From Bdellovibrionales bacterium (GTDB lineage Bacteria > Bdellovibrionota > UBA1018 > CAIMNF01): DNA of 64,000 nt. How positions within the stretch are numbered: the first letter of the stretch is position 1; each line of letters begins with the position of its first letter. The stretch spans positions 1 to 64,000 of the forward strand of contig JBEIJY010000004.1 in NCBI GenBank assembly GCA_040380025.1, written 5' to 3'. Under the pieces are notes generated by a model that was not told the origin of the DNA, did no database searches, and was given only the letters and a program-made list of their open reading frames with translations. Shown in pieces: positions 1,898-21,658 of the stretch. The translations under genes were made by a program, and so were the position numbers.

Positions 1898-2256
1898 CCG
1901 AGCTCCGTGTACTTTTTCGAGTTCCCTTTCGAGAGCCCGACCGGGTATTTCTCTGCGTTCTTTTGAATCTTTACCGCGAGGGCCGCTCCAAGGTCGATTT
2001 CGCAATGGTCGGCAATCCGAAGCAGGTACCCGAACACATCTGCAAGCTCCTCTGCGATTCGGGATTTACATACCTCATCCTGATGCGCGGAATTCGACTG
2101 TTCCTCGGTCTTCCACTGAAAAATCTCTGCAAGTTCAGCGGCCTCGACCATCAAAGCGGTCGAGAGATTCTTAACCGAATGAAATTGTCCCCAATCGCGT
2201 TCGGCTGCGAATTGCTTCAGCTCACTCAATAAAACGTCCGCATCAATGCACTTCAT
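1894..2256 (-). CDS. MazG-like nucleotide pyrophosphohydrolase (dCTPase-like)
   Basis: ERDWGQFHSVKNL, EAAELAEIFQW, EELADV and KNAEKYP motifs. Confidence 0.9.
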   Translation of the reverse strand: MKCIDADVLLSELKQFAAERDWGQFHSVKNLSTALMVEAAELAEIFQWKTEEQSNSAHQDEVCKSRIAEELADVFGYLLRIADHCEIDLGAALAVKIQKNAEKYPVGLSKGNSKKYTELG

Positions 2257-4108
2257 GGCTTACCAGCGCCTCCTTGAAATACCGGGCCGTTTCCTCGTCC
2301 GTGCAATAAATCGCACAGCCCTTCGTCCCGCGGGTCAGAAGCGTCCGGTATGTATTTTTAATCACCGCATCCGCATCGGCAAGGGCCTTTTCTCGATTCC
2401 ACTTCAGGAGCCCCTTGAACCCCTTGATGGATTGGTCCCCTTTTGCACGCTTGGTTCCGTCCGTGATCACCACACCATCGCGGACGATCAAATCAGGACC
2501 GATGATGACGCCAACATAATCCATCTCAAGCCCCTGGCAGGTATGAATGCACCCGATCTGTTCGATCGATCCGGGCTGGATCAGCCAAGCGCTTCCATCC
2601 GAGGCGAGATTCCATTTTTTCTTGAAATCGCCGATCTCGATGTCAAACGCTCGGGCGTTCTTTTTGCTCTTCCACTCCCAGCAGTACCCGGCAACAACGC
2701 GGGACTTTCCACCTACGGAATTTTTTCCCTTGATGAACTCGAACATCCCATCGGGGGTGTCGAACACCCTGAAGTCATATTGCGCCGAATTCAGAGTCTC
2801 GTTCGCGGTCTCTCGGATTTGCAACCGATCATCGAGCCATGCGAGATAGGCATCGGAACCGTTGCACCGATACTGCGATTCGAGTTCCATGACACTCACC
2901 CGAGCACCCAGTTTTTTCGCCCATCGGGTGATCTCGGCTTTCGAGCCGATGTCTTTGAATGTGACGCGCTGATGGTCATCCAAGAAAAACACCGTGAACA
3001 GGGCGCTCTGAATGATCTCTTTGACCTGATTCTCGCCCAGGTTCGAGAACAATCCGGATTTTTCATTGAGCCGGTGGGCTTCATCGATGACCAAGGTGTC
3101 GAAGGTGTTCTTCTCGGTCTGATGAAATCCCCCCGAACCCACGAACAGGTTCGAGATGTGGGAGCGTTTAAAGGAACCCGTGAGCATGGCTTCGTACACG
3201 GCTCTCGGAGCTGCATTTTTCGTGATGTATTGGCTGGTCATGGACCTCTTCGTGAACTCAACGAGGAGATTCACGGCGACGACGCTTTTTCCGGATCCTG
3301 GCCCCCCTTGCACGATCAGAACCTGTTTTGAGGTCGCCGAGCTTTTTTTGGCAAGATCAAGCGCGGTCTCGAAGACGATCTTCTGCTCGTCGACCATGAA
3401 GAACTCCTCATTGCCCTTCAGCATCGAAGCCAGGCTCTCGGCCAGGTTTTTCGAGGGTCGGATTTTTCCCTGATCGATGGCGTACAAAAGATTGCGCCGA
3501 TCGCCGTGGCGCACATGTTTTTTGATGAAGTCCCTGAGCTTTGCGGCCTCATCTCGCAGAAAGACAGGGGTATTCTGAAGATGATGCTCGTAGAAAGGGT
3601 CCCGTACGACAGAGCCATCCTTGCAATTATGAAGGTAGGCGCAGGGGTAAAGCGAGATGTCGTGATCCTCGACCGCGGAATTGAAGTTCTTGAGCAGCAT
3701 GGCGTAGCTCCATGCCTGATACGAAGGATGAGGCGTCTCGCGCAAGCCGCCACCAAGCTGAGTCACGACCACGCCGTCTTTGTCGCTCGGACGGATGTCG
3801 GTCCATTGCTTGAGTTCGACGATCACGAGCGAGTTCTTTTGGGTCTCGTCAAGTCCCGAGACGATAAAGTCAATTCGTTTTGCCGTGTTCGGCACCTTGT
3901 ATTCGATTCCCACCTGGGCATCGGCTGGGATTTCCGGATCCTCGAGAATATTGCTCATGTACTGCAATGAGTTCCGCCAAGAGGAAAGCTCGGATTGCCC
4001 TGTCCGCCTCCCGATTTTCTTAAGAATGGCGCCCGAGACCAGATCGTCGATCCGGTTCTCGAAGACATCCTGCCGAAATTGCACCTTATTTGCCGAGTAA
4101 ATGATCAT
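2243..4108 (-). CDS. DUF2075 (Schlafen group 3-type) helicase with an N-terminal PD-(D/E)xK-like nuclease domain
   Basis: RIDFIV...IVELKQW; Walker A GGPGSGKS; DEAHRL; GCIHTCQGLE; YRTLLTRG. Confidence 0.88.
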   Translation of the reverse strand: MIIYSANKVQFRQDVFENRIDDLVSGAILKKIGRRTGQSELSSWRNSLQYMSNILEDPEIPADAQVGIEYKVPNTAKRIDFIVSGLDETQKNSLVIVELKQWTDIRPSDKDGVVVTQLGGGLRETPHPSYQAWSYAMLLKNFNSAVEDHDISLYPCAYLHNCKDGSVVRDPFYEHHLQNTPVFLRDEAAKLRDFIKKHVRHGDRRNLLYAIDQGKIRPSKNLAESLASMLKGNEEFFMVDEQKIVFETALDLAKKSSATSKQVLIVQGGPGSGKSVVAVNLLVEFTKRSMTSQYITKNAAPRAVYEAMLTGSFKRSHISNLFVGSGGFHQTEKNTFDTLVIDEAHRLNEKSGLFSNLGENQVKEIIQSALFTVFFLDDHQRVTFKDIGSKAEITRWAKKLGARVSVMELESQYRCNGSDAYLAWLDDRLQIRETANETLNSAQYDFRVFDTPDGMFEFIKGKNSVGGKSRVVAGYCWEWKSKKNARAFDIEIGDFKKKWNLASDGSAWLIQPGSIEQIGCIHTCQGLEMDYVGVIIGPDLIVRDGVVITDGTKRAKGDQSIKGFKGLLKWNREKALADADAVIKNTYRTLLTRGTKGCAIYCTDEETARYFKEALVSHEVH

Positions 4109-4341
4109 GGCTGTGTCGGCAGGGTATCACCGGTGCCCTGGAGCCGGAAGCAGGAAGATGCGGGCTTTTGGTGTCAACCGAGGTCACGGAAGGGGCGAAT
4201 GATACCCCCGAACCCTTGGCATTTCGGCCAAAATAACATACAATTTGTGTCGTATCCCGAGCGAAGAATCCCTCTTCCAGCAACCGAGAGGCGCACGCCC
4301 TCCGCGGTGCTTGATTGATACGGCCACAAGGAGGCAAAACC

Positions 4342-4992: not shown

Positions 4993-4998
4993 GAGGGT

Positions 4999-6775: not shown

Positions 6776-6979
6776 GAAATACTGAATAGTCCGTTCTAAA
6801 CAGGGGCTACTACAATCTCAAGCCGCACCGAATTCAGGGGCTCAAAAAGCTAACTTAGTTACCGCCCAAATGTAGACTTGGCATCGAAGACTCGTACACG
6901 ATCATAAAAGATTTTTTACATTAATCCCGGCTCAAACACCACCACAGCACTAATAGAACACTCCAAAACGCGGCCACAA

Positions 6980-7969
6980 CTAATCGAAAATGAATCTCAT
7001 TTTACGGTGCCAACCAAGGCTCTCTTTAGATGGCCTATATTCCGTTTTGTTAGGTAAAAAAATCTCACGTCCATCGAATTGGCGAATTGAAAACGGCGAA
7101 TCCAACTCTTTCAACGCCTTCGATACTTTTACCCGATAGTCATCGGTGATCGAAATCAATCCCCGATCAAACGCCCGGTGTAAATTAGGGCAGAGGGATA
7201 TTCCATTGGTAATGGTATCGTCCTTGGAAACAGAAAACGGCACGATATGGCAAGCGTCAATAAGCTGAGCCTGAGTCTTGGTCTCGATCTGCATCCCGGA
7301 GATCGCACATCGATAATGATATATTCTCGGAATTTCTCGTTTAAAAATTCCGCCCCTCACGAAAATTAATTCTTCGGCTTCCTCTTTTGGCAGCTTTCCG
7401 ATGAGAGATTCAATTTTTTTACGATACTCTTCTCCAGAGCTAGAAAGAATCTCCGAGGAAACAACCTGAATCTCGGAATCAATCGTGCCTTCAATTCGGG
7501 AAAGATCATGGTTTTGGAAATATCTTTCTAACAGGGCCGCCTGCAAAACACGCACAGAATGCAAATTTTTCAACAAAAAGAACAATTCAGGGTCGAGCTC
7601 AACATAGTCCAAAGCCTCAAGCAATGCGCTCATACTCCGAATGCTGTGAGATGACGTGACGGCAAAAGATTGCCCCAACCGAGGAATCAACCGCCAAAAA
7701 GAGGAGGACTTTAAATGATAAAATGGCAAAGCAAAATTAGGCTTAAATCTTGAATCATGAACCAAAATGCTCCAAAGCCGTTTAAACTCCATCAGGAGTT
7801 CCGGAGTTACTTCAATTCGGTTCACCGGGTATGCGTGCTCTTTGAATTGATTCAAAACAGCAAGGAGAAGAATAGGCTTGTGCGGAGCATCCTTATCTCT
7901 CCTCAAGTTTGTGAACTGGGACATGAATCGATCAATATGATTTAGATAAGTCACGATCGATTCCGCCAC
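6980..7969 (-). CDS. SBD-HNH putative phosphorothioate-dependent restriction endonuclease
   Basis: N-terminal APHKPILLLAVL and PFYHL..FW (sulfur-binding-domain signature). C-terminal CAISG..ACHIVPF..NGISLCPNLHRAFD. Confidence 0.8.
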   Translation of the reverse strand: MAESIVTYLNHIDRFMSQFTNLRRDKDAPHKPILLLAVLNQFKEHAYPVNRIEVTPELLMEFKRLWSILVHDSRFKPNFALPFYHLKSSSFWRLIPRLGQSFAVTSSHSIRSMSALLEALDYVELDPELFFLLKNLHSVRVLQAALLERYFQNHDLSRIEGTIDSEIQVVSSEILSSSGEEYRKKIESLIGKLPKEEAEELIFVRGGIFKREIPRIYHYRCAISGMQIETKTQAQLIDACHIVPFSVSKDDTITNGISLCPNLHRAFDRGLISITDDYRVKVSKALKELDSPFSIRQFDGREIFLPNKTEYRPSKESLGWHRKMRFIFD

Positions 7970-8131
7970 AACCGCCCTGGTATTATGCGCTTCACCTAAA
8001 TTTCAGCCTCGTCACTTTCTGTATCCAGAAGTTTTTGGTCTAATGAAACTTGCATCAAAATCCTTCCATTCCAAATCTTTCATCGACCGCGGTCTCAGTA
8101 ACCAATAAAGGAATAAAAATCCATGAAAAAT

Positions 8132-8581
8132 TCATCGTAGATCTCCACCAATTTCTCTCTCAATAATACGAATAAAATCAGATTGCCAACCCCCACACTG
8201 CCGAATCAACCTGTCCCGGTCTTTATAGATTTGTATTCCCAATTCCAAAACGGCAGGCCGGTGGATCTCGTCGCACCTGAAATAGATTGAATTCACCATA
8301 TGCATGTATCTCTGCGATATTCGCCAAGGGAACTCGGTTCTAAAATCTCCATCAAAAACGACACTGTCTTTAAACTGAAGATAGTCATAACCGCAAAAAA
8401 TTCTCTCCTCTTCTTTTTTCATTGTTCGGATCAGCTCCAGAACAAACAAAATATCAGCCGAGTTTCGAACCCCATGTTTCGCGAGTCTTAAAACATCAAA
8501 AAATGGCCTTTCTACATCACGATTTACATCCGGCAGGGCTGGTACTCCTTGCACCCAAGAAGACTTTGTTTTTTTAAACAC
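8132..8581 (-). CDS. Hypothetical protein
   Basis: 149-aa ORF in an AT-richer segment; no motif recognised. Confidence 0.45.
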   Translation of the reverse strand: MFKKTKSSWVQGVPALPDVNRDVERPFFDVLRLAKHGVRNSADILFVLELIRTMKKEEERIFCGYDYLQFKDSVVFDGDFRTEFPWRISQRYMHMVNSIYFRCDEIHRPAVLELGIQIYKDRDRLIRQCGGWQSDFIRIIEREIGGDLR

Positions 8582-8659
8582 TCGAAACTCTCATTCAGAT
8601 TCATTTTTATTCTCCCGTGCACTCATAATTGCGAAAATAATTGCATCATTTCAAAGTTC

Positions 8660-8995
8660 TCAGGGACTCTGATTCCCCCCCCCCACCGCAAACAACACCC
8701 CGGTCATGAACCGCCGGGTGTTCGATCCGGCGCTGATGCCAAAGCGGCCGAGCATATGATCAACTGGCAACACAAGCAGGCAAATCACCTTCAGAGGCGT
8801 GCCAAGGCCTTGCATCGCACTCGCTACCAATGGGGCATTCATCAGCACCACTCCTGCGATCAACCCAAGACATCGTCCACACAAAGGTAAACAAAATCGC
8901 CCGAGGTGCGGAGCTCGCTCTATTTTTAAATTGCAAAGCGGGCGCTCGCCAAAGTACTGAAGCCGCCCCCGCCACTCCATAAATCGGATTCCCAT
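8660..8995 (-). CDS. DUF2085-like small membrane protein
   Basis: PLCGRCLG and SNTRRFMTGVLF motifs, with hydrophobic helices. Confidence 0.7.
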   Translation of the reverse strand: MGIRFMEWRGRLQYFGERPLCNLKIERAPHLGRFCLPLCGRCLGLIAGVVLMNAPLVASAMQGLGTPLKVICLLVLPVDHMLGRFGISAGSNTRRFMTGVLFAVGGGNQSP

Positions 8996-9093: not shown

Positions 9094-9882
9094 TCACGGC
9101 TTGAAACCCCGTTCGAGTTCCTCATTCAGGTCGACCGAGATCATGCCGAGGCCATCAGTAAAGCGAAATCGAAACTGGTTCAGGAGCGAACGCCCGATGA
9201 CCCCATCGAGTCCGATCATCCGGACGCTCATTGCAAGCATGCCCGATAGGCGCCCGAATCGAAGAGATCCGGCGGGGATGGAAGCTCCTCTTTGATCGGG
9301 GGCGCATTCTGCATGAAGATGCGCCTCATATTCCCTGCTCTCGGTCCGGAATGCGCCGGTGAGCGGATGGACATCTTCAAGATCAGGGGCAGAAATTCCC
9401 CCATCCGGCAGATCGAGCAAATATCCATGCTCGCACCCCGAATCAAGCACAAGTCTCTGCCGGACTCCCGCAAGATCGACATGGACCACGGGAACTCCCA
9501 TCACCGTTTCGGTCTTCAGAATGCGCCAGTGCCTTCGCTCTGCCACCTCGGGATTCACCCACCTGAGCTCGACCGTTCCGGCCTTCACATCCATCATCAT
9601 GTCCATTCGTGCAAAGGCATCGGCGCCCGCGAGTGCATGCACATGGACTCCCGGCACAAGATGACCCACCGTGGACTGGATCTTCGAGATCGGCATGAGC
9701 AAATTGCCCGCCGATTCATGAATCCCGCATCTTCGCAAAAACGGAGAACCGCGAACCGGGTCAAATAACGAATGGGTCGATCCGGTGTCTAAAATCACAT
9801 TCTCGCCGTCGATTTCGATGAGCGCCAATTTTTGACTCAAAAGGCGGCATGTTCGTTCTAAGGTCATATCAAGTTTGCTCAT
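9094..9882 (-). CDS. Aspartyl protease with two retropepsin-like lobes
   Basis: ILDTGS and VLDSG motifs; ALAGAD and GVIGRSLL hydrophobic-Gly motifs. Confidence 0.7.
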   Translation of the reverse strand: MSKLDMTLERTCRLLSQKLALIEIDGENVILDTGSTHSLFDPVRGSPFLRRCGIHESAGNLLMPISKIQSTVGHLVPGVHVHALAGADAFARMDMMMDVKAGTVELRWVNPEVAERRHWRILKTETVMGVPVVHVDLAGVRQRLVLDSGCEHGYLLDLPDGGISAPDLEDVHPLTGAFRTESREYEAHLHAECAPDQRGASIPAGSLRFGRLSGMLAMSVRMIGLDGVIGRSLLNQFRFRFTDGLGMISVDLNEELERGFKP

Positions 9883-10606
9883 AAAGGTAGTAATCCGATC
9901 CGGTCATGGCGAATTCCGGGAAGGCGCGTTTTGTCCTCGTCATTCCGAGAGACTGAAAAATCACATCGAGTTCTTCGATCCTCCATTGGCGGATCGGGAA
10001 CTCTTCCTCATACGAGAAGCTCTGCCCCCCGAACATGCCAGAGCATTTTTCGCGGTAGGTGAACAAGCCCTCCTCGTTCGCGGGGTTTAACCAAACCTCG
10101 CGCTTGAAATCCCCATCATTCGCATTGATGATCCTCCCGCCCCTGAAAAACAGCGGCCCGGGGAGATCAAAAAAGAAGCGTCCTTTGGGGTTCAGGGACT
10201 TTTGGATCGCAGTGAGGTTTCGGGTCATCTCCTCGTGCATGGTCGTGTACGACAGCACCGTGAACAGGGCAATCGCAAGATCGGCGCCTGATCCCGTGAA
10301 ATCGGCGATCTTCTGCTCGAACACCGGAATCTCGACCCCGGCATTTTTGCAGTTCTCGCGGAACTGCCGGACCATCCCGGAGCTCACCTCGACTGCGGTC
10401 ACACCCAAACCGCGCTGTTTGAGCGGAACCGAGAGGCGACCCGTTCCGGCACCGAGGTCGATGAGTGCTCCTTTCGGAAGAAGGCCTTCGATCACCTTCA
10501 GATTGAGTTCTGTGAGATGATGATACATCGATCCGAACGTCTTGTGATAAACGAACTCGTAAAACTCAGCCCAGGTGTCGTGAGGTCTTGGATCAGTATT
10601 TTGCAT
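9869..10606 (-). CDS. Class I SAM-dependent methyltransferase
   Basis: IDLGAGTGR, AVEVSSGM and LNPKGRFFFD. Confidence 0.88.
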   Translation of the reverse strand: MQNTDPRPHDTWAEFYEFVYHKTFGSMYHHLTELNLKVIEGLLPKGALIDLGAGTGRLSVPLKQRGLGVTAVEVSSGMVRQFRENCKNAGVEIPVFEQKIADFTGSGADLAIALFTVLSYTTMHEEMTRNLTAIQKSLNPKGRFFFDLPGPLFFRGGRIINANDGDFKREVWLNPANEEGLFTYREKCSGMFGGQSFSYEEEFPIRQWRIEELDVIFQSLGMTRTKRAFPEFAMTGSDYYLYEQT

Positions 10607-10979
10607 GTTTAAGGATCACTCTAGCAAGAACCTGTGTCAGGAGAGGACAATCTACTTTTGCGGAAGTGCCTTTTGGAAAAGGTTCAATAAACCCTGAACC
10701 TTTTCGATCCCCTCGGAGTCGAACAAAGAAGACGAAAGAGCGCACATTGTTGTTTCATTATCAGGTATTTTATAAACGGTAAAAGCCAACCCGATCCCAA
10801 AATCAAGGCACCGGATTGGCTTATTACTCAGAAAGAAGGTAAAAAAACGAACAAATGGATTAAACCACAGGCCCGTGTCATTTGGGGACGCTTGAGAATT
10901 TTTTCCCGCCACCCCCATCATTCTCGCTTCCCGCGCTCACCAGGCAATGATATCCTTTCGAAAAGCAAGGCGGATCACG

Positions 10980-12059: not shown

Positions 12060-12090
12060 AGTACAAATAAACGTACAATTTATTGTACAA
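12060..12090. promoter_or_regulatory. Three GTAC-core operator-like sites spaced 12 bp apart
   Basis: GTAC at 12061, 12073 and 12085 (the last is TTGTACAA), directly upstream of the Phd/YefM-like gene. Confidence 0.65.
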
Positions 12091-12148: not shown

Positions 12149-13972
12149 TTACCCCTCCCACAGGTTCCCGAGCACAATCAGGAACGAGAAGTGCTCTCCC
12201 CCGGAATACGAGCCTGCGTCCGAGTACTTTCGGTACCGAATCAGCATTCCGACGCCCTGCTGGCGAAGAATCGGGTCGAAGCCAAGACTGATTCCGAAGT
12301 AATCCTGTCGAAACTTCCCCTGGCTTTTCGTGCGCTGGCTGAAGTAGAGCCCCGCCTCAGGAGCGAAGTAAATCTGATTCGCAAAATAATACGGAATTCC
12401 CACATTCAGGTCATGGCTCACGAGCGTTTCATCTGTTCCGCTCGAGAACGAATACTGGCTATCCGGAGACCTCGGTTCGTAGTCTTTTCCGAGACCGAGT
12501 GAGTATTCGGCTCTCAGGTACGCCGTGCGGATGATCCTTTTTTGAATTCCGAGGCTGTTCAGCAAACAGCAAAAGCTCCGATTGGAATCCTGAAGAGGAA
12601 TGCTGTTCGGGGCCCCTCCATACCCGAGCCCGTAATACACATACCGACTCGAGTACTCGCTATCAATCTCGGCCTCCCGACGCGCATCCTCCCGCCGCGA
12701 CTCCTCGATTCGAATGGCACGCTCGCGCTCTTCTTCCTCGCGTTCCTGCTGACGAAGCCTCCTGTCCTCCTCTCGCTCAGCCTCCCGGCGACGCTGTTCC
12801 TTCTCGCGCTCTTTCTTTTTTCGAATCTCCTCCTCCGATTCACTGGTGAGGCGCTTGGTCGGGACGATCTTGGTCTCTCCGCCCTTCACCCGGACCTCGA
12901 AATCCTCATCCACGAACCCTTTTTTGCGAAGGAGTACCACGTGCTCGCCCTTCGTTACGGTGAACCCCTGTGAATCGCCGGTTTTTCCGACCTTTTTTGA
13001 ATCGAGATACACATCCGCCCCCGAGGGAAACGAGTCGAGGAGAATCCGCGCGGACTTATGGACCAGATTGAAGACGGGAAGCTCCAGGCCGTCCAGCACC
13101 CGAACCTGGGTCGAGAACTCATTCACCTCGGGATGACTGAAAGAAATGGTGAGTGTGTCGCCGTGGAACGCCTTGATTTTGGTCGGCGTGGTGCCACGAT
13201 GAGGATGGCCGTTCACCATGACGATCGCATCCGAGGGCTCGGTCTGAAGTTTGAGCCGGATTTCTTTTCGTTTGAGCGTTTCGCGGTGAATGGTCGTCTG
13301 CCCGGGATGAATGGTGACCTTTTGATTCAGCTCGGGCTCGTAGTCGGGGTGAATGAGGTCGACCCAGTGCTCTCCCGGTTCGAGTACGCCGCGGATTCGA
13401 ATCGGCGTGAGCCCCCATGAACGATGATCGACCTTGACCTCGGCCCCGGGCGGGATCGTGTGGATCTCGAGTGTTCCCTTGTTCTTTCCGGGGGCATCTT
13501 CTCCGACCTCATGAACCGGGAGATCGCTATTCCGCGCCCGGATCTCGCGCTTCAGGCGTGCTTTCTCGTCCTGAATCTCCTTCACCGGATACCGGCACAG
13601 CACATAGGCGGTGAAATCACCGGAATTCTCGCGAATCTCGTTTTGCTCGGTCTCGAACCCCAAAAGACGGACCGACTCACTCTTCTCGCTCAGGCGCTTT
13701 GAAAGTTTCACATCGCTCAGGGTCTCGAGGCTCTCGGAATCGAGCGTGAGTTCCACGCCAAAATTCTCTTTGATTGCCTGCAAGGAGGCGTCCTCGATTG
13801 CCTCGCGAAGGGCGTCTTTTTCGTTTTTTCGGGGAGCCGATCGCCCGACATAAAACTTATGGACCTGGTTACCCGGGGGCTTTTGCCGGACCCACTCCGG
13901 AAGGGGAACCGAAGGGGGATTCGCGTGGGCCACTGGCAAAAACACCCCGAGCCACCAGAGGAGGAAAACCAT
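12149..13972 (-). CDS. Secreted protein: LPP20-like domain, 3 PEGA domains, charged coiled coil, C-terminal beta-barrel
   Basis: Signal peptide ending AHA; PEGA starts TIPPGAEVKVD, TEPSDAIVMVNG and SFPSGADVYLD; an E/R-rich helix; aromatic amphipathic strands at the C-terminus. Confidence 0.75.
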   Translation of the reverse strand: MVFLLWWLGVFLPVAHANPPSVPLPEWVRQKPPGNQVHKFYVGRSAPRKNEKDALREAIEDASLQAIKENFGVELTLDSESLETLSDVKLSKRLSEKSESVRLLGFETEQNEIRENSGDFTAYVLCRYPVKEIQDEKARLKREIRARNSDLPVHEVGEDAPGKNKGTLEIHTIPPGAEVKVDHRSWGLTPIRIRGVLEPGEHWVDLIHPDYEPELNQKVTIHPGQTTIHRETLKRKEIRLKLQTEPSDAIVMVNGHPHRGTTPTKIKAFHGDTLTISFSHPEVNEFSTQVRVLDGLELPVFNLVHKSARILLDSFPSGADVYLDSKKVGKTGDSQGFTVTKGEHVVLLRKKGFVDEDFEVRVKGGETKIVPTKRLTSESEEEIRKKKEREKEQRRREAEREEDRRLRQQEREEEERERAIRIEESRREDARREAEIDSEYSSRYVYYGLGYGGAPNSIPLQDSNRSFCCLLNSLGIQKRIIRTAYLRAEYSLGLGKDYEPRSPDSQYSFSSGTDETLVSHDLNVGIPYYFANQIYFAPEAGLYFSQRTKSQGKFRQDYFGISLGFDPILRQQGVGMLIRYRKYSDAGSYSGGEHFSFLIVLGNLWEG

Positions 13973-13994
13973 TTCAATCCTCGTCGATTCGGCT

Positions 13995-14555
13995 TCAGTT
14001 GAAGAAATCGAGATGCTTCTTTTGGATCTGCTCTTTTACCTTCGGATCGGCCTCGACCACCTTCGAGAGGACCATGCGCTTCAGCCTCGTGTGATCCTGC
14101 TTGCTGATCTCGCTCAGGACATGACAATCGATTCGCTCTTCGTCGTCGATGCGATACCGGGCAAAGTACTCGGCCGAGAACCGCACGCCGGCGACGGCGG
14201 CGCTGAACTCGGAGCTCCGGGATTTCGAGAGAACAATCTCGGCGTTCTCAGAAAGACTCGCCTCGTTTGTGTCCAGAACGCCCTTGATGCTCTCTTGAAT
14301 CTCGCTGATCAGGAGCGTCTTCGCGTTCATCCGCGCCAGATCATAGCATCCCGAGAGGCGCTCGTTGCCGCGAATCTGCTGGCTCGACTTCAGGTAGATC
14401 TTCCCGCTCTCTTCCCATGCCGTCCGGGAGTTCCCGACCCAGGCGGGCTTTTGCTCGCTCTCGTCGATCACGACTTTTTTGATTTCTCCGCCCGAACTGC
14501 AAGCGTTCAACCCGAGCACGCCGACACTGGCGACAATCCATCCGAAAATTCTCAT
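13995..14555 (-). CDS. Lipoprotein, LPP20-like
   Basis: Lipobox LNAC, KPAWV motif and ARMNAK..LISEI helix; GGAAAGGA RBS. Confidence 0.75.
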   Translation of the reverse strand: MRIFGWIVASVGVLGLNACSSGGEIKKVVIDESEQKPAWVGNSRTAWEESGKIYLKSSQQIRGNERLSGCYDLARMNAKTLLISEIQESIKGVLDTNEASLSENAEIVLSKSRSSEFSAAVAGVRFSAEYFARYRIDDEERIDCHVLSEISKQDHTRLKRMVLSKVVEADPKVKEQIQKKHLDFFN

Positions 14556-14608
14556 ACTGCATTCCTTTCCTGGCCGACTGGCTTTGAGGCATGACCATAG
14601 CCCCTGCC

Positions 14609-14675
14609 TGTGACAGCGAAGGTCACAGCCAGAAGAACCTATTTCTTGGTAGAGGGAATGACCTTCGTTGTCACA
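14609..14675. promoter_or_regulatory. Two inverted 17-bp operator-like sites, each TGAC-N7-GTCA
   Basis: TGTGACAGCGAAGGTCA (14609-14625) and TGACCTTCGTTGTCACA (14659-14675) match 16/17 as an inverted repeat in the divergent intergenic region. Confidence 0.75.
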
Positions 14676-14697
14676 AGCTCGGAATAGACTGGCAACC

Positions 14698-15729
14698 ATG
14701 CCAAAACCCAAGCGGACCAGAGCCCCCCGGGAGCTCGGGCGAAACTCTCAGGTTTCACGAATATACCGGATTCTCAACATCCTCGAGCACTCCATGAACG
14801 GGCTCACCGTGGCGGAGATTCATGAACGCCTCGAGGAGCGGAGTCATAAGGCCTCCCGCCGCACCATTTATCGCGATCTTGATGCTCTATTGAAGGCGGG
14901 GTTTCCGCTCTACGAGGAGGGGCAGGGTGAGACTCTTGCCCGCTGGAAGCTGAACCGGAACCCCAGAATCAATCAGTACCTGGCCCTTACGGCGCGCCAG
15001 CTGTTTGCGCTTTTTCTTGCCCGCGGAGCGGTCTCACCGCTGAAACAAACTCCGTTTTACGAGGATCTGAAAGAGATCTTCACCCGCCTCTCGGATCGCC
15101 TCGGAGACCGACAGGTGGAATACCTGAGGGCGCTCGAAAATGAGGTTCGGTTTGAACCGGGGCCGGCATGGGGACTTGGAATCAACCCGGAGATTCTGGA
15201 AACCATTCGTTCCGCCTGTGCAGAGGGGCAAATTCTGGAGGGCGTGTATTTTTCGGTGAACTCCGAGACCGAACGCAACCGAAAACTCGGGCCGCATTAC
15301 TTGTATTACGCTCAAGGGGGGCTTTACCTCGTGGCTGAGGATCTCGACGATCGCAAGGTGAAGGTATTCGCCCTTCCGCGCTTTCGAAACGCGATGATGC
15401 TCGATCAGCCTTATCTCGGAAAAGTCAGCACGCCGGAATCATTTTTTAACGGCGGAATGGCCATCTATAACGGTACACCTCCCGAAGAGATCGTCATCGA
15501 GTTCGAGAAAAAGATGGCGCACTTTGTGAAGGAACGCTGTTGGCACCCGACCCAGCGGGTGAAGTCACTGGAACGAGGCAGAGTGGAAGTCCGTTTTGAA
15601 CTCGGGAACACACCGGAGCTTCTTGCCTGGATTCTGGGCTTTGGTGCAAGCGCCAAGGTGATCGCACCGAAATCGCTCGCCGAGACGGTGAGAAGGGCGG
15701 CTCTGGAGACGGCTGAGGTGTACGCCTGA
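14698..15729 (+). CDS. wHTH-WYL-WCX transcriptional regulator (YafY/PafB/DriD-like)
   Basis: SRRTIYRDLDAL HTH; GLYLVAED..KVFALPRF WYL domain; WHPTQ and WILGFGASAKVIAPKSL WCX domain. Confidence 0.92.
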   Translation: MPKPKRTRAPRELGRNSQVSRIYRILNILEHSMNGLTVAEIHERLEERSHKASRRTIYRDLDALLKAGFPLYEEGQGETLARWKLNRNPRINQYLALTARQLFALFLARGAVSPLKQTPFYEDLKEIFTRLSDRLGDRQVEYLRALENEVRFEPGPAWGLGINPEILETIRSACAEGQILEGVYFSVNSETERNRKLGPHYLYYAQGGLYLVAEDLDDRKVKVFALPRFRNAMMLDQPYLGKVSTPESFFNGGMAIYNGTPPEEIVIEFEKKMAHFVKERCWHPTQRVKSLERGRVEVRFELGNTPELLAWILGFGASAKVIAPKSLAETVRRAALETAEVYA

Positions 15730-15737
15730 CTTCTCCC

Positions 15738-18700
15738 TCACACCCCCGCTTCGGCGATCCAGCCATCGGGGTTGTGCAAGAAGGCGCGCACTTTACGGCC
15801 GGGATACGCCCGCCGCACGGCCGTGGCATACGCAAGGAGCTGCGGCCCGTACTCGTCCAGAAGTTCACTCGCGTTCTCGACACGCTTCAGGCTCGCCTTA
15901 TGATCGACAATCACCGCCTCCTCGGCGGTCAGCACCAGGGCATCCATGCTCCCGCGCACGATCGATCCCTTCAGCTCGAACTGCACCGGAACCTCGCGAT
16001 GCAGTTCCCCGCGCGGCCAAATCTCCTTCACTTTCGCAAAAAAGCGATCGGATGCTTCGACGAGCGCTTCGGCGCTCACCACGTTCGCGCGCACCGAAAA
16101 GCGCTTCAGAATGTCCTCGGCCCGCATAACCCGGTCTCTGCGATTGGCTCGGGAATCGTCTGATCCCAAGAACAAATGCACGGCGGTTCCGAGCTCGTCG
16201 CGACGAACCCGCGAGGGCGCGTTTGCCGAACTCTCTGCCTGCTGAGCCGAACGATTCAGCACCAAATCGCGGCCGAAGGCCATGACCTCCAAAAGAGCGG
16301 GCCGGGTCGCGCCCTCTTCTGCGATCGCGCTCCACGACAGAGCACTCGGCTGAAGATACAAACTCGGCTGGTCGCCCGTCAGGGGCGTTCCTTCGGGCAG
16401 AACGCGCACCTTCCGCGTCGTGCTCGGGTCTGTGGAGGATGCGGGCGCAGGGGCCGGATCAAGCTCCACCGTACGGCAGGGATGAGGCGCGCCGTCGATC
16501 AGGATTTTTCCGGCCTCGGGCGAAAAACTCACGAGGAAGCCTTCTTCGCCTTCGAGCACGCCCAAGAACGAACTCTCATCGAGCGCATTTCGGTACTCGT
16601 TCAAAAACACCAGCCGCTCTTTGGCCCGGGTCATTCCCACATACAAAAGGCGCCTGTGCTCGGCCCGCCGCGCGGCTTGCCGCTCGGTGAGCGACTTCGA
16701 GCCCACCTGGTGCTGGGTCAGATTGTCGATCTTTTTTTGCTTCCCAAACGGCCAGAGCAAGTTCTCGATCACGCGGTTCGCAAGAGGGGCCGAGAAATCA
16801 AACTTCGCATGGGGCTCGAGCCGCACCATCGAATCAAACAAGGAGCTCTCGACCGGGTCGGACTTCAATGACCCCAAAATTACCACCGGCCACTCGAGTC
16901 CCTTGGCCTTGTGATAGGTCATCACATGAATCGCACCCGAGTGTTCGCTTGCGGGGATTTCGGGCTCTTCTTCGTCCAAAAACGCAAGAAACCCCGTATC
17001 CGAGCAAGGGGTGAACGAGGCCAGGCACTGGTCTTCATACCGGATCGCCACCTGCCGAAGCGCCGCCACATGAAACTCCCGCTGATCGCCCCCGCTCATC
17101 GAGCTCAGTCGTTCGGGAAGTCCCGACACCGCAATGGCAAGGTCGAGCTTCTCGCACACGCCGAGGCCCTTTGCCAGCTTGCGCGCCTCTTCGAGCTTCT
17201 CGAGCACGGGATGCGCGGTTTCGCGGGCAAGCGCGCGTTTCAGCCATTCATTGGGATCGATGCCGAATCCGAGCAAAAGCTCACCCGCCGCGACGGAGTC
17301 ACGAGGATTCACCAAATACCGATACGCGGCCAGCGCGAGAACCACCTCGGACTGCTTGAGCAGTTCTCCGCCCGAAACCGAGACCGAGAGTCCCGCCTCT
17401 TTGAGCGCCTTCGTGAAGGTGTCCACATGGTCTTTCGTTCGGAGCAAGAGCGCGATATCCCCGGGCCGGATAACTCCGGAATTCAGCAAAGATCGGACTC
17501 CGCTTGCCAGCCCTTTCGCGTGCTGTGATTTGTTCTTTTCATGCGAGTTCCACACCTCGATCGTCTGCTCGTCGCTGGTGTGGGGCCACTTCGGGTCCTG
17601 CCGGATTTCGCTTGCGGGAATTCCATCGCGCGCGAATGCACGCACAAAGACCTCGTTGTTGAACTCGACGATTCCTTTGGCCGAACGCCAGTTCGAGGGA
17701 AGCACCTCGCGGACTGCGTGCAGGGAAGTCTCGAGAACCGCCTTCATGGTCATTTCCATGAGCGTCGGATCGGAGCCGCGGAATCCGTAAATGCTTTGCT
17801 TCAGATCGCCGACCCAAACCACTTTTTTGCAAAGCGCCCCGAGCTTCATGAAGATCGCGAGCTGGACCGGGTTCGTGTCCTGGAACTCATCGACCATGAG
17901 CATATGCAGTTCCGACCGGAGCCGCTCGATCACCTCGGGCTGATCGAGGATCTTGAGGGTCATTTGCTCGAGATCCGAGAAATCCAGCCGTCCGAGCGCC
18001 TTCTTTTTACCGGAGTAGTGATCCATCGCCTTCTTGGCGAGCCCGAACACGAATCGTACGGACTCTTCGAGATCAGAGCGGAACTCCTGCGTGGCAAGGA
18101 ACAAGCGCGCAGAATCGATCACAGGCCGAAATAGAGGCAACACCTGGACCGCAGGCCCGAGCTTGCCCAGCAGCACCCATTCGCGCCAGGTGAGTTCCCC
18201 GCCTTGCTCGAGGATCCGTGCGGCTTGCTTCACCGTTTCGTGAGCCACGGCGGTATTGGCATGGGGACTGGGAGGTACGGGGTGATTCGTCAGATAATGG
18301 CGAAGCGCGGCCTTCAGCTCTTGCGTACAGTCGGGACGGTTCGCCTGCGGAATCGCCTCGATCAGGATCTTCAGACTCGCCTCGATCGAATTCTTCCATC
18401 CTTGTTCGTCAAAATCGTTCTGTCGCGCGAGATCGACAAGATCTTCGATATGCTCCTCGAGATTCTCGATCAGAATCGAAAACCGATGCGCGAATCCGCT
18501 GAATTTCGCATAATCCTGCTCGCTCATGCACTCGTTCAGCGACTGCCGGAAGAGCCGCGTCTTTTCGTCGTCGACCAGAATCTCCTGCCGGAGCGAGGCT
18601 CCCTGTTCGAAGGCGAACCGGCGCAGGATCTCGGCACAGACCGAGTGCACCGTGCCCACCAAGGCGAGCTCCATCGCACGCGATTGCTCGACGAGCCCGC

Positions 18701-18884
18701 CGTCGATCAGCTTCTGCCGGATCCGCTCCTTCAGCTCGCCCGCGGCCTTGATCGTAAAGGTCGAGGCGATGAGCCCGTGCGGGGGCATGCCCGCCTTCAC
18801 CTCTTCGAACACCTCGTTCATGAGCTTGTAGGTTTTGCCGCTTCCGGCGCTGGCTGAGACCAGAACATGCTGGGGAGAACTCAT
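15738..18884 (-). CDS. addA: AddA-like UvrD helicase-nuclease
   Basis: ASAGSGKT, VDEFQDT, GDLKQSIYGFRG, TYHKAKGLEW, LYVGMTRA and a C-terminal GSMD..IVDHK nuclease. The start overlaps the upstream stop (ATGA). Confidence 0.85.
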   Translation of the reverse strand: MSSPQHVLVSASAGSGKTYKLMNEVFEEVKAGMPPHGLIASTFTIKAAGELKERIRQKLIDGGLVEQSRAMELALVGTVHSVCAEILRRFAFEQGASLRQEILVDDEKTRLFRQSLNECMSEQDYAKFSGFAHRFSILIENLEEHIEDLVDLARQNDFDEQGWKNSIEASLKILIEAIPQANRPDCTQELKAALRHYLTNHPVPPSPHANTAVAHETVKQAARILEQGGELTWREWVLLGKLGPAVQVLPLFRPVIDSARLFLATQEFRSDLEESVRFVFGLAKKAMDHYSGKKKALGRLDFSDLEQMTLKILDQPEVIERLRSELHMLMVDEFQDTNPVQLAIFMKLGALCKKVVWVGDLKQSIYGFRGSDPTLMEMTMKAVLETSLHAVREVLPSNWRSAKGIVEFNNEVFVRAFARDGIPASEIRQDPKWPHTSDEQTIEVWNSHEKNKSQHAKGLASGVRSLLNSGVIRPGDIALLLRTKDHVDTFTKALKEAGLSVSVSGGELLKQSEVVLALAAYRYLVNPRDSVAAGELLLGFGIDPNEWLKRALARETAHPVLEKLEEARKLAKGLGVCEKLDLAIAVSGLPERLSSMSGGDQREFHVAALRQVAIRYEDQCLASFTPCSDTGFLAFLDEEEPEIPASEHSGAIHVMTYHKAKGLEWPVVILGSLKSDPVESSLFDSMVRLEPHAKFDFSAPLANRVIENLLWPFGKQKKIDNLTQHQVGSKSLTERQAARRAEHRRLLYVGMTRAKERLVFLNEYRNALDESSFLGVLEGEEGFLVSFSPEAGKILIDGAPHPCRTVELDPAPAPASSTDPSTTRKVRVLPEGTPLTGDQPSLYLQPSALSWSAIAEEGATRPALLEVMAFGRDLVLNRSAQQAESSANAPSRVRRDELGTAVHLFLGSDDSRANRRDRVMRAEDILKRFSVRANVVSAEALVEASDRFFAKVKEIWPRGELHREVPVQFELKGSIVRGSMDALVLTAEEAVIVDHKASLKRVENASELLDEYGPQLLAYATAVRRAYPGRKVRAFLHNPDGWIAEAGV

Positions 18885-21559
18885 TTTTTCTTTTCCTCGA
18901 AGAATTTGCCGCAAATGCGGTCGAACTCACAATACCGGCAGGGAGCCTCGAAGGGGAGCGTTCCCTCTTCGTCCCACCCTCGGGCGCGGAGCACGCCCGA
19001 AAAGAGAATCTCTTTCGCCGCCCGAAGGCTCGCCCCCGCCCGCTCCAAAACCTCGCGAACCTCCGGACCATTTACCTCGGTCGCGTCCTTCAGGCTTTGG
19101 TTCAGCACCAACAGCTCGCGATCGTTGATCATGTGGTAGGCGAGGACGGGTGGAGTCCCTCCGCCGATCAAAAGCGAGTACAAGGCAAGCTGAAGGCTCG
19201 TGCCCTCCTCGAGCGCGCTCTTTTTGTAGCCGCCCTTTCCCCACTTGTGGTCGACAATGATCTGCGCGCCCGTAGGGGTCTTCAGAACATGATCGATCAC
19301 ACCGGTGATCGAAACGCCTTCGATTTTGTGATTGCTCTCTTTGATTTCGACCTCGGTCGCGCCCACCGTAAGGTGGTTTTTTTCGAGCAGGCGCGCGTAG
19401 GATTCGGCGGCCCGGACCACCCGGTCGCGCAAAAAAAGACGCTCGGTCGAGAGCGCGGCCTGAAACAGCGACGGCGCAAAATCGCGCGCTACTTCTGGAA
19501 ACAAATCTTCGGCCAGGGCCTTGGCACGATCGGGTATGGGCGGTGCCCCTTCTGAAAACACCTTCGCCAGAACCTCATGCGCGATGAGCCCCTTCGTACG
19601 ATCGGTATACTCGAGGGTCTCGCGATCCTCACCCCGGAGTCGCGCCGGATACTGGAGCACATACGCAAGCTCACAGCCGAGAAGTTTTTCGAGCGACGAA
19701 GCCGACTCGGCCGGTCTGAGCCCTAAGGAGTCCTTCGCGACCTTCCAATCGGGGCGCGGTCGAGAGAGGAGTTCGGGCGTCTCGGGAACCTCGATCGCTC
19801 CGATCGAGGTCAGAAACTTCATGGTCGCTTCTTCGTCCTGTTCGGTCAGTCTCACCTCGATCGCACTCAGCCAGTCTTTGCGGATCGCTTCGGGGAACAG
19901 CTCGAACCAGAGCGGATGCACGCCATCGGGGTCGCCTGAGCGGTTCAGGAGGGAATGAAAAAACACCATCTGCGACTGGGCCATCCGGACCGGCCGATGA
20001 AAGCCTTTCCCGGCCGAGACAGCACGGGCCGCATCATCGGGCCATTCGATTTTGGAAGCAAAAAGCCGTTCGATTTCGGCGCGAGAAAAAAACGCGTCAT
20101 GGGACACATGGGCCGCGGAAGAATTGAAATCCCACCAAATCACGGTCGATGCGGGAGCCGTGATGGCCTCGGGCCGCTCGACCACAAATGGGCCCCGGGC
20201 TTGCGCCGCAACTCCATTCGACGAAACTCCGTCTTCGACCGCCTCGACGAGCAGACTCAGCAGGCGCTCGCGCGTGATCCGCGGCTCCTTCAGGTTTTGC
20301 ACCAGATTCCCGAGCAGATTCGCAATCTCGATGGTTCCCCGAACCGACGCCCCGCCCTCGTTCTGATACCGTTGCTGAAACCACCGCGTGACCCGTTTCA
20401 CAATCGCAATCACATCGCCCGCGGGAATTCCGTTTTCATACGAATGAGCCGGAGCCGAGAACCACTCCTTGACGCGTGCGGCGCGATCTTCGAGCTTCTT
20501 TTTTTCTTCTTCGTCGTTGAGCTCGGTCAAGGCCTTCGAAAGCGCCTCTTCGAGGGCGAGATTCCACTTCGGGCCGCCAACCACCAGCGACTCCTCGAAC
20601 GAACCGATCAGGGCAGAGCGAAACCGTGAGCTCACCGGAGACCCTTCGATGGTCACAAGCGCGAGCGCGGCCGAAGGATCTTTCGGGTCCCACGCGAGCG
20701 TGAGCGCGAGAATGAGAATCTGAAGCGGGGGCCTCGCGTACGAGACCTCGGCATGATCGCCGCCGAAGGGAATGCCCCGAGCTTCGAAGGCGGTCTTCAG
20801 GATTCCGCGATTGCGGGGCGGGCATACGATCACAGCATTTGCCTGCTCTTCGGCCGAAAGAGAGGCCACGAATGCGGCGGCCACTCGCGCCGACTCCCAG
20901 GGGTCGCGAGCGGTGACCAGCCGGACGCTTCCGTCGCCCTTCGGTGCGATCGCCTCGTGGTGCAAGCGAGGAAGGGCCGAAAGATCGCCGGCGTTTGCGT
21001 GTGCGGGCCCGGAGTTCCAATCGCGCGATTCGATCGCGACTCCCGCCGCCCGGAGGGCCGAAAAAATCTTCCGCAGGCGGAAACTCTGCTCGGCGGAATC
21101 GCATTCGATCGTGATTCGCGAGAGTCCGCACGGGACCGGGGTTTTGGTCAGGGATTCTTCGACTTTGCGCAAGCGATCGGATTTTCCGGATTCATCGCAA
21201 AACAACGCCTCGAGCCTCGCGAGATCGGCGACCTTGGAGAGTCCCGCGACGGGTTTGCCGTCCCACCCGGAATCGATCAGGCGGTCGCGGACCGAGAGCA
21301 GTCTCTTCGATGCAGCCACCGGGTCGACCTCGAACGAGCGCGACCAGAAGCCGGGCTCCCCGTCTTTGATGGCATTCAGGTGCGCAAGCCTTCGCACCTC
21401 GGGGGCGACATCGGGCCCCTTCAGACCGAGCTGAACCTCGAGAAAATCAAGAAGGCCGATCTCCCCCACCCATCGTTCTCCGACCTGCCCGGAGCCCGGT
21501 TGAACGGGTCCGCACCAAAGGTTCGAATCATAGGCCGGCGAGAAATGAAGATGGATCAT
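18881..21559 (-). CDS. addB: AddB-like PD-(D/E)xK nuclease with Fe-S cysteines
   Basis: SASSLEKLLGC, GVID..IVDHKW, QLALY and CRYCEFDRIC; no Walker A motif. Confidence 0.8.
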   Translation of the reverse strand: MIHLHFSPAYDSNLWCGPVQPGSGQVGERWVGEIGLLDFLEVQLGLKGPDVAPEVRRLAHLNAIKDGEPGFWSRSFEVDPVAASKRLLSVRDRLIDSGWDGKPVAGLSKVADLARLEALFCDESGKSDRLRKVEESLTKTPVPCGLSRITIECDSAEQSFRLRKIFSALRAAGVAIESRDWNSGPAHANAGDLSALPRLHHEAIAPKGDGSVRLVTARDPWESARVAAAFVASLSAEEQANAVIVCPPRNRGILKTAFEARGIPFGGDHAEVSYARPPLQILILALTLAWDPKDPSAALALVTIEGSPVSSRFRSALIGSFEESLVVGGPKWNLALEEALSKALTELNDEEEKKKLEDRAARVKEWFSAPAHSYENGIPAGDVIAIVKRVTRWFQQRYQNEGGASVRGTIEIANLLGNLVQNLKEPRITRERLLSLLVEAVEDGVSSNGVAAQARGPFVVERPEAITAPASTVIWWDFNSSAAHVSHDAFFSRAEIERLFASKIEWPDDAARAVSAGKGFHRPVRMAQSQMVFFHSLLNRSGDPDGVHPLWFELFPEAIRKDWLSAIEVRLTEQDEEATMKFLTSIGAIEVPETPELLSRPRPDWKVAKDSLGLRPAESASSLEKLLGCELAYVLQYPARLRGEDRETLEYTDRTKGLIAHEVLAKVFSEGAPPIPDRAKALAEDLFPEVARDFAPSLFQAALSTERLFLRDRVVRAAESYARLLEKNHLTVGATEVEIKESNHKIEGVSITGVIDHVLKTPTGAQIIVDHKWGKGGYKKSALEEGTSLQLALYSLLIGGGTPPVLAYHMINDRELLVLNQSLKDATEVNGPEVREVLERAGASLRAAKEILFSGVLRARGWDEEGTLPFEAPCRYCEFDRICGKFFEEKKK

Positions 21560-21658
21560 GATGCGGGGAATATACCCCGAATGGTGTCCTTTTGCCTAGA
21601 TTTCGGCAGCCGGAACAAGGGCCGAGTGACCCATTATGACGCGGGAAAGTCGAAATCG

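Follow-up and report, generated by a model that had tools for sequence, protein, structure and literature searches.

We analyzed a 64,000-nucleotide stretch of the Bdellovibrionales contig JBEIJY010000004.1 (assembly GCA_040380025.1, positions 1 to 64,000; hereafter the window), in which the gene of a WYL-domain regulator stands back to back with a two-gene envelope operon. The regulator gene (14698..15729, + strand) encodes 343 residues from its ATG. On the opposite strand, a lipoprotein gene (13995..14555, − strand; 186 residues from the ATG giving MRIFGW...LNAC) is followed, 22 nt past its stop codon, by an open reading frame (ORF) of 607 residues (12149..13972, − strand) for a protein with PEGA domains and a predicted C-terminal barrel. 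The divergent gap between the lipoprotein and regulator genes (14556-14697, 142 bp) contains two copies of an inverted element, named box 1 and box 2 here. Overall, we think it rather probable that these are the boxes of an adjacent DriD-like activator, which drives its own gene and the envelope operon within a small stress or defense regulon. The evidence presented below is computational throughout and covers the box and its degree of conservation, the constant geometry of its promoters, the linkage of the genes and the predicted folds.

The regulator consists of a winged helix-turn-helix (HTH) at its N terminus, a central WYL domain and a C-terminal WCX domain. The Pfam matches are HTH_11 (1e-5, residues 21-74), WYL (5e-11, residues 165-232) and WCX (7e-17, residues 261-337), in agreement with the initial annotation of this locus, which had called the protein a WYL regulator. 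The gene-caller version (P0001) is shorter, with 311 residues; since relatives align from about residue 14 of the longer protein, ATG 14698 is the only plausible start. Relatives share 40-68% identity with the protein among the 120 matches listed. A family profile, A1, was made from an alignment of 52 relatives, and two arginines, R55 and R59, are invariant in all 52 aligned sequences. Scanning with this profile, one genome per species, identified a relative in 388 of 600 candidate stretches, from which the best 80 loci were kept. The close relatives (43-50% identity) are found at eight loci (L001-L006, L033 and L053) of Oligoflexales/Bdellovibrionota-type genomes. The relative of L007 shares 31% identity, and most of the remaining loci belong to Desulfobacterota and Myxococcota, with 26-32% identity. 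Among the titles and abstract starts of publications naming both Bdellovibrio and the WYL domain, none was about such a regulator.

Box 1 (14610..14626, − strand) reads GTGACAGCGAAGGTCAC on the forward strand and GTGACCTTCGCTGTCAC towards the lipoprotein gene. Box 2 (14658..14674, + strand) reads ATGACCTTCGTTGTCAC towards the WYL gene and ends 23 nt before ATG 14698. The two boxes are the sole matches to TGAC-N7-GTCA in the 64 kb, and they confirm the two near-identical inverted 17-mers that the initial annotation had seen in a 142-bp gap. Box 2 is the reverse complement of box 1 at 15 of 17 bases, the extended arms agree at 18 of 20 positions, and box 1 carries longer internal arms that match at 10 of 11. 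An independent matrix was built from 18 training sites of other genomes, none of them from the window. Its top four hits in the 64 kb are 14610 (score 20.2, the best in the window), 10634 (18.9), 4171 (18.9) and 14658 (18.6). All four exceed the maximum of 18.4 reached in 300 first-order Markov simulations of 64 kb (mean of maxima 13.7), and only around 0.5 hits scoring at least 14 are expected per 64 kb. Each of the four boxes is intergenic and aimed at a gene start.

The same box recurs with WYL genes in other genomes. A four-site matrix from the window and L001 was run on eight other close loci. In five of these (L003, L005, L006, L007 and L053), the promoter region holding the locus-best hit is that of the WYL gene or of the operon that includes it; in L004, the promoter hit ranks third. 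Two copies 50 bp apart lie upstream of the WYL gene in L001 and two copies 41 bp apart in L004; L003, L005 and L006 carry one or two boxes each upstream of the WYL gene. Among the 47 distant loci (26-32% identity), 10 show a hit no more than 400 bp upstream of the WYL gene, in each case the locus-best hit and often the sole one; one such box, GTGACAGATCCGGTCAC, is common to L009, L013, L015 and L018. The finding of the same box upstream of related WYL genes with unrelated neighbors indicates that the box goes with the WYL gene and that the dyads behave as its operators, as the initial annotation had proposed. By this comparison of sequences, the link between regulator, operator and operon appears well supported, and we hold it to be very likely. 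Two results weigh against it: no box was found upstream of the WYL gene of L002, and 37 of the 47 distant loci have no upstream box at the threshold used. The best hit of L033 (8706) was rejected as a box, as it lies inside the neighboring coding region and is probably false.

Further copies are seen in the distant genomes. In L039, additional pairs of box and −10 lie at 10060 and 11940, away from the WYL promoter, and one of these boxes stands before a gene with an ARPP-1 domain, which follows directly downstream of the WYL gene. L044 and L045 carry copies of TTGACAGATCCGGTCAC with TATGGT, TAGGGT or TATTCT at a gap of 10 nt. These extra pairs hint at larger regulons. In the Desulfobacterota loci L009, L013, L015, L017, L018 and L023, the box is situated around 65-345 bp upstream of the WYL gene and serves a conserved divergent pair, formed by a protein of about 58 residues (MT..ISYPDYYDCYE..) and a protein of 125-140 residues (GVGCFxKP motif), neither of which has a Pfam family.

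The box is slightly asymmetric and keeps a constant orientation. Read towards the nearest gene start, it has the form RTGACC-N5-TGWCAC and is followed by 10 nt and a −10-like hexamer. In the WYL promoter, the predicted −10 is TAGACT (14685..14690, + strand), which follows box 2 at a distance of 10 nt and precedes ATG 14698 by 7 nt; no Shine-Dalgarno sequence was seen ahead of this ATG, and the regulator mRNA is therefore predicted to be leaderless or nearly so. In the promoter of the lipoprotein/PEGA operon, the predicted −10 is TATGGT (14594..14599, − strand), 10 nt after box 1. The hexamers at this gap in other genomes include TACAAT, TACCTT, TATAAT, TAATTT and TAAAGT. A scan of the 142-bp gap with the sigma-70 consensus gave no −35/−10 pair anywhere, and no conserved −35 consensus was found. 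The initial annotation had missed this fixed 10-nt spacing between box and −10 in the absence of a −35, as well as further strong boxes elsewhere in the window, of which there are at least two (4171 and 10634).

The geometry was further examined in 34 sites, hand-picked from score lists near WYL genes or in intergenic regions and including the probably false hit of L033. G3, C5, G13 and C15 are invariant in all 34, and both halves have the form G-W-C, arranged as an inverted rather than a direct repeat. Base 2 of the hexamer at a gap of 10 nt is A in 32 of the 34 sites (1-16 at other gaps), and the pattern TAnnnT occurs at this gap in 13 of 34 (0-3 at other gaps). Because these sites were chosen by hand and one is probably false, an unselected test was made over all 81 sequences (1.25 Mb), taking every hit scoring at least 14 and excluding the training sites. 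An A was found at the expected offset in 21 of 37 hits, compared with 5.8 on average at the remaining offsets, and this enrichment weakens in lower score bands. An automatic count of ORF starts 16-120 nt from the box gave 31 of 34 on the gene-ward side and 19 of 34 on the other side, and is too noisy for use. With the −10 placed at −12 to −7, the box spans about −39 to −23. A box placed exactly 10 nt ahead of a −10-like hexamer, without a −35, points to activation rather than repression, and we regard activation as quite likely.

Comparison with known WYL regulators leads in the same direction. The nearest solved relative is DriD of Caulobacter crescentus, an activator of an SOS-independent damage response that is switched on by single-stranded DNA (ssDNA) and has the same HTH-WYL-WCX layout. 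Searched against the PDB, profile A1 matched DriD (8tp8/9pfq) at 1.3e-18 over positions 4-326, i.e., over the full length, and the single WYL sequence matched it at 1.4e-6. PafC and PafB were matched at 8e-13 and 8e-7, respectively, whereas the BrxR/CapW structures were barely detected (7t8k, 5e-3; 7tb5, 8e-3; 7qfz, 0.087), and only in the WYL part, which leaves the regulator outside the CapW/BrxR cluster. Since the profile is nearest to DriD and far from CapW/BrxR, we read the regulator as DriD-like and probably as an ssDNA-triggered activator. By this sequence comparison, it would belong with the DriD-like damage-response activators as a distant relation, not as a DriD ortholog. The single-sequence identity is low.

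The base-reading residues and the sites of the two regulators are also alike. The motif RTIYR of our regulator (R55 and R59) aligns with RTAER of DriD, whose R37 and R41 are described as reading the G and C of the consensus ATACGAC(X)7GTCGTAT (PMC10853764); the initial annotation had named a GAC-N7-GTC-type dyad for DriD, and this consensus bears it out. Both dyads follow the scheme G-N-C, 7, G-N-C, with the half-sites TGAC/GTCA here and CGAC/GTCG in DriD (CGAC-N7-GTCG). DriD homologs are reported to have an own-promoter site in 68 of 69 cases, at an average of about 17 nt from the start codon (PMC10853764), and the own-promoter box likewise lies near the start codon here. DriD promoters are described as lacking a −35; the site overlaps the place where a −35 would be, its distance from the −10 is constant, and RNA polymerase is recruited (PMC13004042). 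The same arrangement is predicted for our boxes. The ssDNA contacts of DriD are given as Y168, R178, Y192, K202, R204 and W206 (PMC9186387). In our own reading of the alignment, these correspond to Y184, R195, Y210, K220, K222 and F224, and they are kept or conservatively replaced. DriD differs from the present case in its host, an alphaproteobacterium as against Bdellovibrionota and Desulfobacterota, and in its targets recA/recJ/dnaG; those suggested here are a module of the outer membrane, a helicase and a methyltransferase. An envelope output, for which the initial annotation knew of no case in WYL systems, does have a precedent, since the main DriD target, didA, is reported to encode an inhibitor of division whose binding partner is the divisome protein FtsN (PMC10853764) and which thus acts at the envelope.

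PafBC, which adapts the sigma factor in mycobacteria, resembles our system at the promoter. Its promoter is given as tGTCgg(N10)tA(N3)T, in which the upstream element occupies −23 to −28 and a −35 is missing (PMC8635444), and the half TGWCAC-N10-(T/G)AnnnT of our sites stands in the same register; the likeness is one of promoters. The GTC triplet of PafBC is also read by two helix-3 arginines, and its trigger is reported to be ssDNA (PMC11804915). In contrast to PafBC, a heterodimer with one HTH on DNA, a single WYL gene is present at the window locus and both half-sites are conserved. A third system, DdaA of Moraxellaceae, a WYL activator of DNA-damage and anti-phage genes, was compared by its description rather than its sequence. 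It is reported to recognize the palindrome CGWCA-N5-TGWCG, which has the same GWC spacing, and to control repair and defense genes, and the tree of its authors sets it next to DriD (PMC12392091). The DdaA motif differs in lying about 50 bp upstream of start sites, and the authors argue against a PafBC-type mechanism (PMC12392091).

The same regulator and boxes could instead work as a CapW/BrxR-type repressor, in which the dimer on −39 to −23 blocks RNA polymerase until ssDNA or another ligand releases it. CapW and BrxR are WYL repressors beside defense systems and have the same domain layout; CapW is described as repressing both ways from a shared gap (PMC9122588) and as binding ssDNA (PMC11662680). 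Variable defense cargo is present near our relatives as well, namely a CBASS (cyclic-oligonucleotide-based antiphage signaling system) operon in L006, an IetA-like gene in L003 and GmrSD near L002. Some points favor this reading, or weaken the case for activation. The CBASS operon behind the box of L006 recalls the repressor CapW. The Desulfobacterota sites carry TGn extended −10 elements, and since extended −10 promoters can fire without a −35, independently of an activator, these sites fit a repressor equally well. Several of them are orthologous promoters, so that the 34 sites are not independent, and the −10 hexamers are predicted, many of those in Bdellovibrionota-type loci being poor (GATAAA, CACGCT and GAGGGT). 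On the other side, the weakness of many hexamers and the missing −35 also speak against a repressor, as does the barely detectable profile match to BrxR/CapW set against the full-length match to DriD. The position of the box differs too: the CapW palindromes are reported to overlap the −10 (PMC9122588), whereas the box here ends 10 nt before it. A constant orientation and spacing over unrelated targets is the rule of activators, as in DriD, PafBC and Pho promoters; PhoB contacts region 4 of the sigma factor. Repression therefore seems rather unlikely to us.

That the dyads are not WYL sites at all, arising from chance, from a cruciform or RNA hairpin, or from another factor such as PhoB or LexA, is very improbable. 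The bare count of TGAC-N7-GTCA is not significant by itself (chance mean 0.78; at least two matches in 19 of 100 shuffles), which weakens the case for the two boxes taken alone. Boxes 1 and 2 can also pair through 20-nt arms 33 nt apart, and the promoter-proximal half resembles a Pho-box repeat, the Pho boxes being likewise 10 bp upstream of the −10 (PMC1906773). Against this, the box follows WYL genes across phyla with unrelated neighbors, often as a single copy incapable of forming a hairpin. Furthermore, the inverted G-W-C halves of all 34 sites match the two conserved arginines and the dyad spacing of DriD and DdaA. A Pho box or LexA box was rejected as the identity of the dyad, as the repeat is inverted instead of direct and linked to WYL genes.

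The lipoprotein has a lipobox (..LNAC) and two further conserved cysteines; among 17 homologs, C19 is nearly invariant and C70 and C144 are invariant. The predicted model (pLDDT, predicted local distance difference test, 79) has its best PDB matches in Helicobacter pylori Lpp20 (HP1456, 5ok8; E 0.018, probability 0.99, template-modeling (TM) scores 0.35/0.53) and Tip-alpha. The nearest Atlas cluster is "putative LPP20 lipoprotein" (0.95, 220 of 256 features), and these LPP20 clusters are mostly viral on the few available records, which is a lead only. The initial annotation had termed the protein LPP20-like. This name finds support in the fold match and the Atlas feature search and none in sequence families, with no match in Pfam or NCBIfam (E 0.01); PADLOC gave no match either.

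The 607-residue protein matches PEGA in Pfam at 9e-22 (77.2 bits against a cut-off of 20.8) in two stretches, and its model (pLDDT 78) shows three β-sandwich units. Along the chain, the model contains a signal peptide, a head (around 25-148), three PEGA units (around 165-370), a charged helix of 59 residues (381-439) and a barrel (443-604). The barrel has eight long antiparallel strands, for which Foldseek identified NspA (1p4t, TM score 0.71), OmpX (0.60) and Ail (0.60-0.63), each with a probability of 1.00. It also matches the transmembrane domain of OmpA; these OmpX/NspA/OmpA-type matches are at the level of fold, from a predicted model, and no sequence family is matched. The α/β head is taken to be LPP20-like from a shared PxW motif and our own reading of the secondary-structure pattern, rather than from a fold match. 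The models thereby bear out the envelope reading of the initial annotation, with a lipoprotein of predicted Lpp20-like fold and a protein with signal peptide, putative LPP20-like domain, three PEGA units, helix and eight-stranded barrel. In an eight-stranded barrel, the two chain ends are on the periplasmic side, and the remainder of the 607-residue protein should therefore hang into the periplasm from the outer membrane. A predicted complex between the lipoprotein and the PEGA protein's N-terminal domain was uninformative either way (score 0.08, mark 0.32). An Atlas search with the PEGA protein returned leads below 0.9 only, namely PEGA proteins, of which some carry autotransporter barrels. 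For this protein, nothing useful came from NCBIfam or PADLOC, and in the literature we found neither a PEGA domain paired with WYL or LPP20 nor a description of an LPP20-like head combined with three PEGA units, a long helix and a barrel.

Both envelope families are rare, with 8 full-length PEGA/barrel homologs and 17 lipoprotein homologs found, and their linkage to the regulator was followed in two ways. By tblastn over the best 80 loci, relatives of the lipoprotein or PEGA protein were found in two only, L053 (both) and L007 (PEGA). In L053, the lipoprotein, the PEGA protein, a 304-residue lipoprotein and the WYL regulator are encoded in this order on one strand; the first two genes overlap by 4 nt, and the best box lies 37 nt before the first ATG. 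In L007, the PEGA gene precedes the WYL gene, and the locus-best box lies 36 nt before the PEGA ATG. A box thus stands ahead of a PEGA or lipoprotein gene at both loci, in line with the operators named in the initial annotation. In addition, two relatives of the lipoprotein and PEGA protein carry consecutive accessions on one contig. Relatives of these two proteins pair through identically sized contigs (37797, 4288, 13117, 28990, 4025 and 31855 bp), and a WYL relative occurs with a PEGA and/or lipoprotein relative on identically sized contigs of 37797, 4288, 13117, 31840 and 11179 bp. If equal size means the same contig, which is indirect evidence, the trio would be present on four or five metagenome contigs.

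A different envelope pair stands beside the WYL gene of L033, namely a 1447-residue Ig-repeat protein and a Pfam LPP20 lipoprotein; no convincing box was found for this pair.

Several observations limit the case for a dedicated cassette. The contig argument is indirect, and 4 of the 8 PEGA-homolog contigs (28990, 4025, 31855 and 4655 bp) have no WYL contig of the same size among the 120 matches listed and 22 WYL clusters. Of the 8 close loci that represent species, 6 (L001-L006) have no lipoprotein or PEGA relative nearby, and the same is true of 78 of all 80 loci. The cargo varies from locus to locus, with the envelope operon as one of many options. In the PADLOC search, neither envelope protein matches a defense model, with no family for either, and tblastn with the PEGA protein gave no match in plasmid and phage collections. 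The WYL protein itself had only distant hits in plasmids, at around 27% identity. From such facts it could be argued that the envelope operon is an ordinary housekeeping unit which shares the gap, and that box 1 is only autoregulatory: most relatives of the regulator have other neighbors, and the two envelope proteins fit no known defense model. We judge this quite improbable, as box 1 is directed towards the lipoprotein gene, with a −10 of its own at the usual 10 nt, and as the sole strong box in L007 and L053 stands ahead of the PEGA or lipoprotein gene, in an operon that has the WYL gene further downstream. The rarity of the two families and the recurrence of the trio on several contigs also speak against a housekeeping unit.

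The two other strong boxes of the window precede genes of a different kind. Box 3 (4171..4187, − strand; GTGTCAACCGAGGTCAC) scores 18.9, above all 300 simulations, and the ATG of a Schlafen-type (DUF2075) helicase lies 62 nt downstream. This helicase (2243..4108, − strand; 621 residues) is a candidate defense gene, with a Pfam match to SLFN-g3_helicase at 3e-100 and PADLOC matches to PDC-S41 (6e-19), AbiO (5e-10) and Nhi (2e-9). Box 4 (10634..10650, − strand; score 18.9) is followed after 10 nt by TAGAGT, and ATG 10606 of a class I methyltransferase lies 27 nt past the box. The methyltransferase (9869..10606, − strand) matches Pfam Methyltransf_25/11/12 and PADLOC mad2 (3e-11). The end of its gene is overlapped by that of a 262-residue protein (9094..9882, − strand), for which no Pfam family was found and in which the motifs DTGS/DSGC (ILDTGST and LVLDSGC), read from the translation, are aspartic-protease-like. 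A weaker box 5 (10875..10891, − strand; TTTAAT after 10 nt) lies 268 nt from the methyltransferase ATG; its score of 13.9 is not significant alone, given about 0.5 expected hits of at least 14 per 64 kb. The strong boxes at 4171 and 10634 are the reason why we speak of a small regulon.

Convergent with the WYL gene are genes for an AddA-like helicase-nuclease (15738..18914; UvrD helicase and PD-(D/E)XK) and an AddB-like nuclease (18881..21559). AddAB was considered as a target and rejected: the only box-like site nearby, at 21626, scores within the chance range (11.9-12.8), is directed away from addB and lacks a −10-like hexamer, and no box in the right orientation precedes the pair. AddA or AddB relatives were found beside none of the WYL genes at the best 80 loci.

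The genes behind the box in other genomes include further candidates for defense. In L006, a box lies 55 nt before the first ATG of the CBASS-type operon (5048-8871), which is divergent from the WYL gene and contains a small ORF, an HNH-SAVED effector, a DncV-like nucleotidyltransferase (CD-NTase) and a 221-residue protein. In L003, the box precedes an IetA-like double AAA ATPase. Secreted proteins of the staphylococcal nuclease type (SNase) in L001 (9254-9775) and L004 (13325-13813) have a box 36-40 nt before their ATG, and Sel1-repeat proteins stand behind the box in L001 and L005.

These results can be combined into a mechanism, in which we infer binding by the WYL protein, activation, an ssDNA signal and an envelope function. 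The regulator clade would span Bdellovibrionota/Oligoflexales and Desulfobacterota, with each box belonging to its own promoter. A dimer may read the two GWC triplets through R55 and R59; located at about −39 to −23, it would most likely help RNA polymerase onto an intrinsically weak promoter. By analogy with DriD and PafBC, the trigger may be ssDNA held in the WYL domain and arising from DNA damage or phage replication, and we take ssDNA to be a fairly probable signal. Induction by DNA damage or phage, which the initial annotation proposed, is a possibility suggested by the likeness to DriD and PafBC, the conserved counterparts of the ssDNA contacts and the defense-type genes behind the box elsewhere. 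The back-to-back boxes would switch on two units, the nearly leaderless regulator gene and the operon of the lipoprotein and PEGA/barrel protein, and the same box may also switch the Nhi/AbiO-like helicase and the methyltransferase operon.

The two envelope proteins may form a periplasmic assembly tethered to the outer membrane, with the barrel in the membrane and with the helix of about 59 residues, the three PEGA units and the LPP20-like head reaching inward, together with the partner Lpp20-like lipoprotein. Our committed guess is that this assembly hinders the entry of phage or foreign DNA, although an inducible barrier of this kind is put forward tentatively. The main alternative is a damage-induced checkpoint of division or of the cell wall, of which YneA and ChiZ are examples. 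More speculatively still, the regulator, the lipoprotein and the PEGA/barrel protein may be a conserved cassette, a new envelope defense or DNA-entry barrier that is built only when ssDNA appears, with a homodimeric DriD-like activator replacing the −35 contact as the switch.

WYL regulators increasingly appear to connect gene expression with DNA damage and phage attack, and few of them have known sites and mechanisms. The present results offer a testable box, RTGACC-N5-TGWCAC-N10-TAnnnT, for an unstudied clade in at least two phyla, and suggest that the design of DriD and PafBC promoters, a box in place of the −35, may be widespread. They also place a rare, uncharacterized and predicted outer-membrane-tethered module among the putative regulated outputs, beside genes of recognized defense types, namely CBASS, IetA-like and Nhi/AbiO-like genes and secreted nucleases. 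Should the module act on the entry of phage or DNA, it would be an inducible defense at the envelope level, of which few are known; if its target is the wall or cell division, it would represent a damage checkpoint of a new kind. An ssDNA-built cassette would extend the promoter logic of Caulobacter and mycobacteria to Bdellovibrionota and Desulfobacterota.

Some minor features of these loci were also recorded. In L001, L003 and L006, the WYL gene is followed by a large RNase_H_2 and AAA_11/12 helicase, and in L002 and L004 by a DUF2779 protein. Base composition is patchy in the left part of the window, with a GC content of 0.45 at 6-9 kb against 0.57-0.61 further right. There, the region 2243-7969 resembles a defense island: besides the Schlafen helicase and a 225-residue protein with no assigned family, it encodes an ADP-ribosylglycohydrolase and contains a pair of HNH_2 nuclease genes with matches to the PADLOC models for HNH and type II restriction. 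The Rfam and tRNA scans gave nothing in the WYL/envelope region, and the sole RNA gene found in the window is a tRNA-Ser (GGA) at 35245-35334. The segment 11730-12110 contains a small ORF (about 105 residues from ATG 12047, − strand) that looks like a Phd/YefM antitoxin by eye, with no family hit. This ORF has its own sigma-70-like promoter, TTGAAT-17-TACAAT (12110-12082), and a palindrome, GTACAAT...ATTGTAC, lies around 12066-12090.

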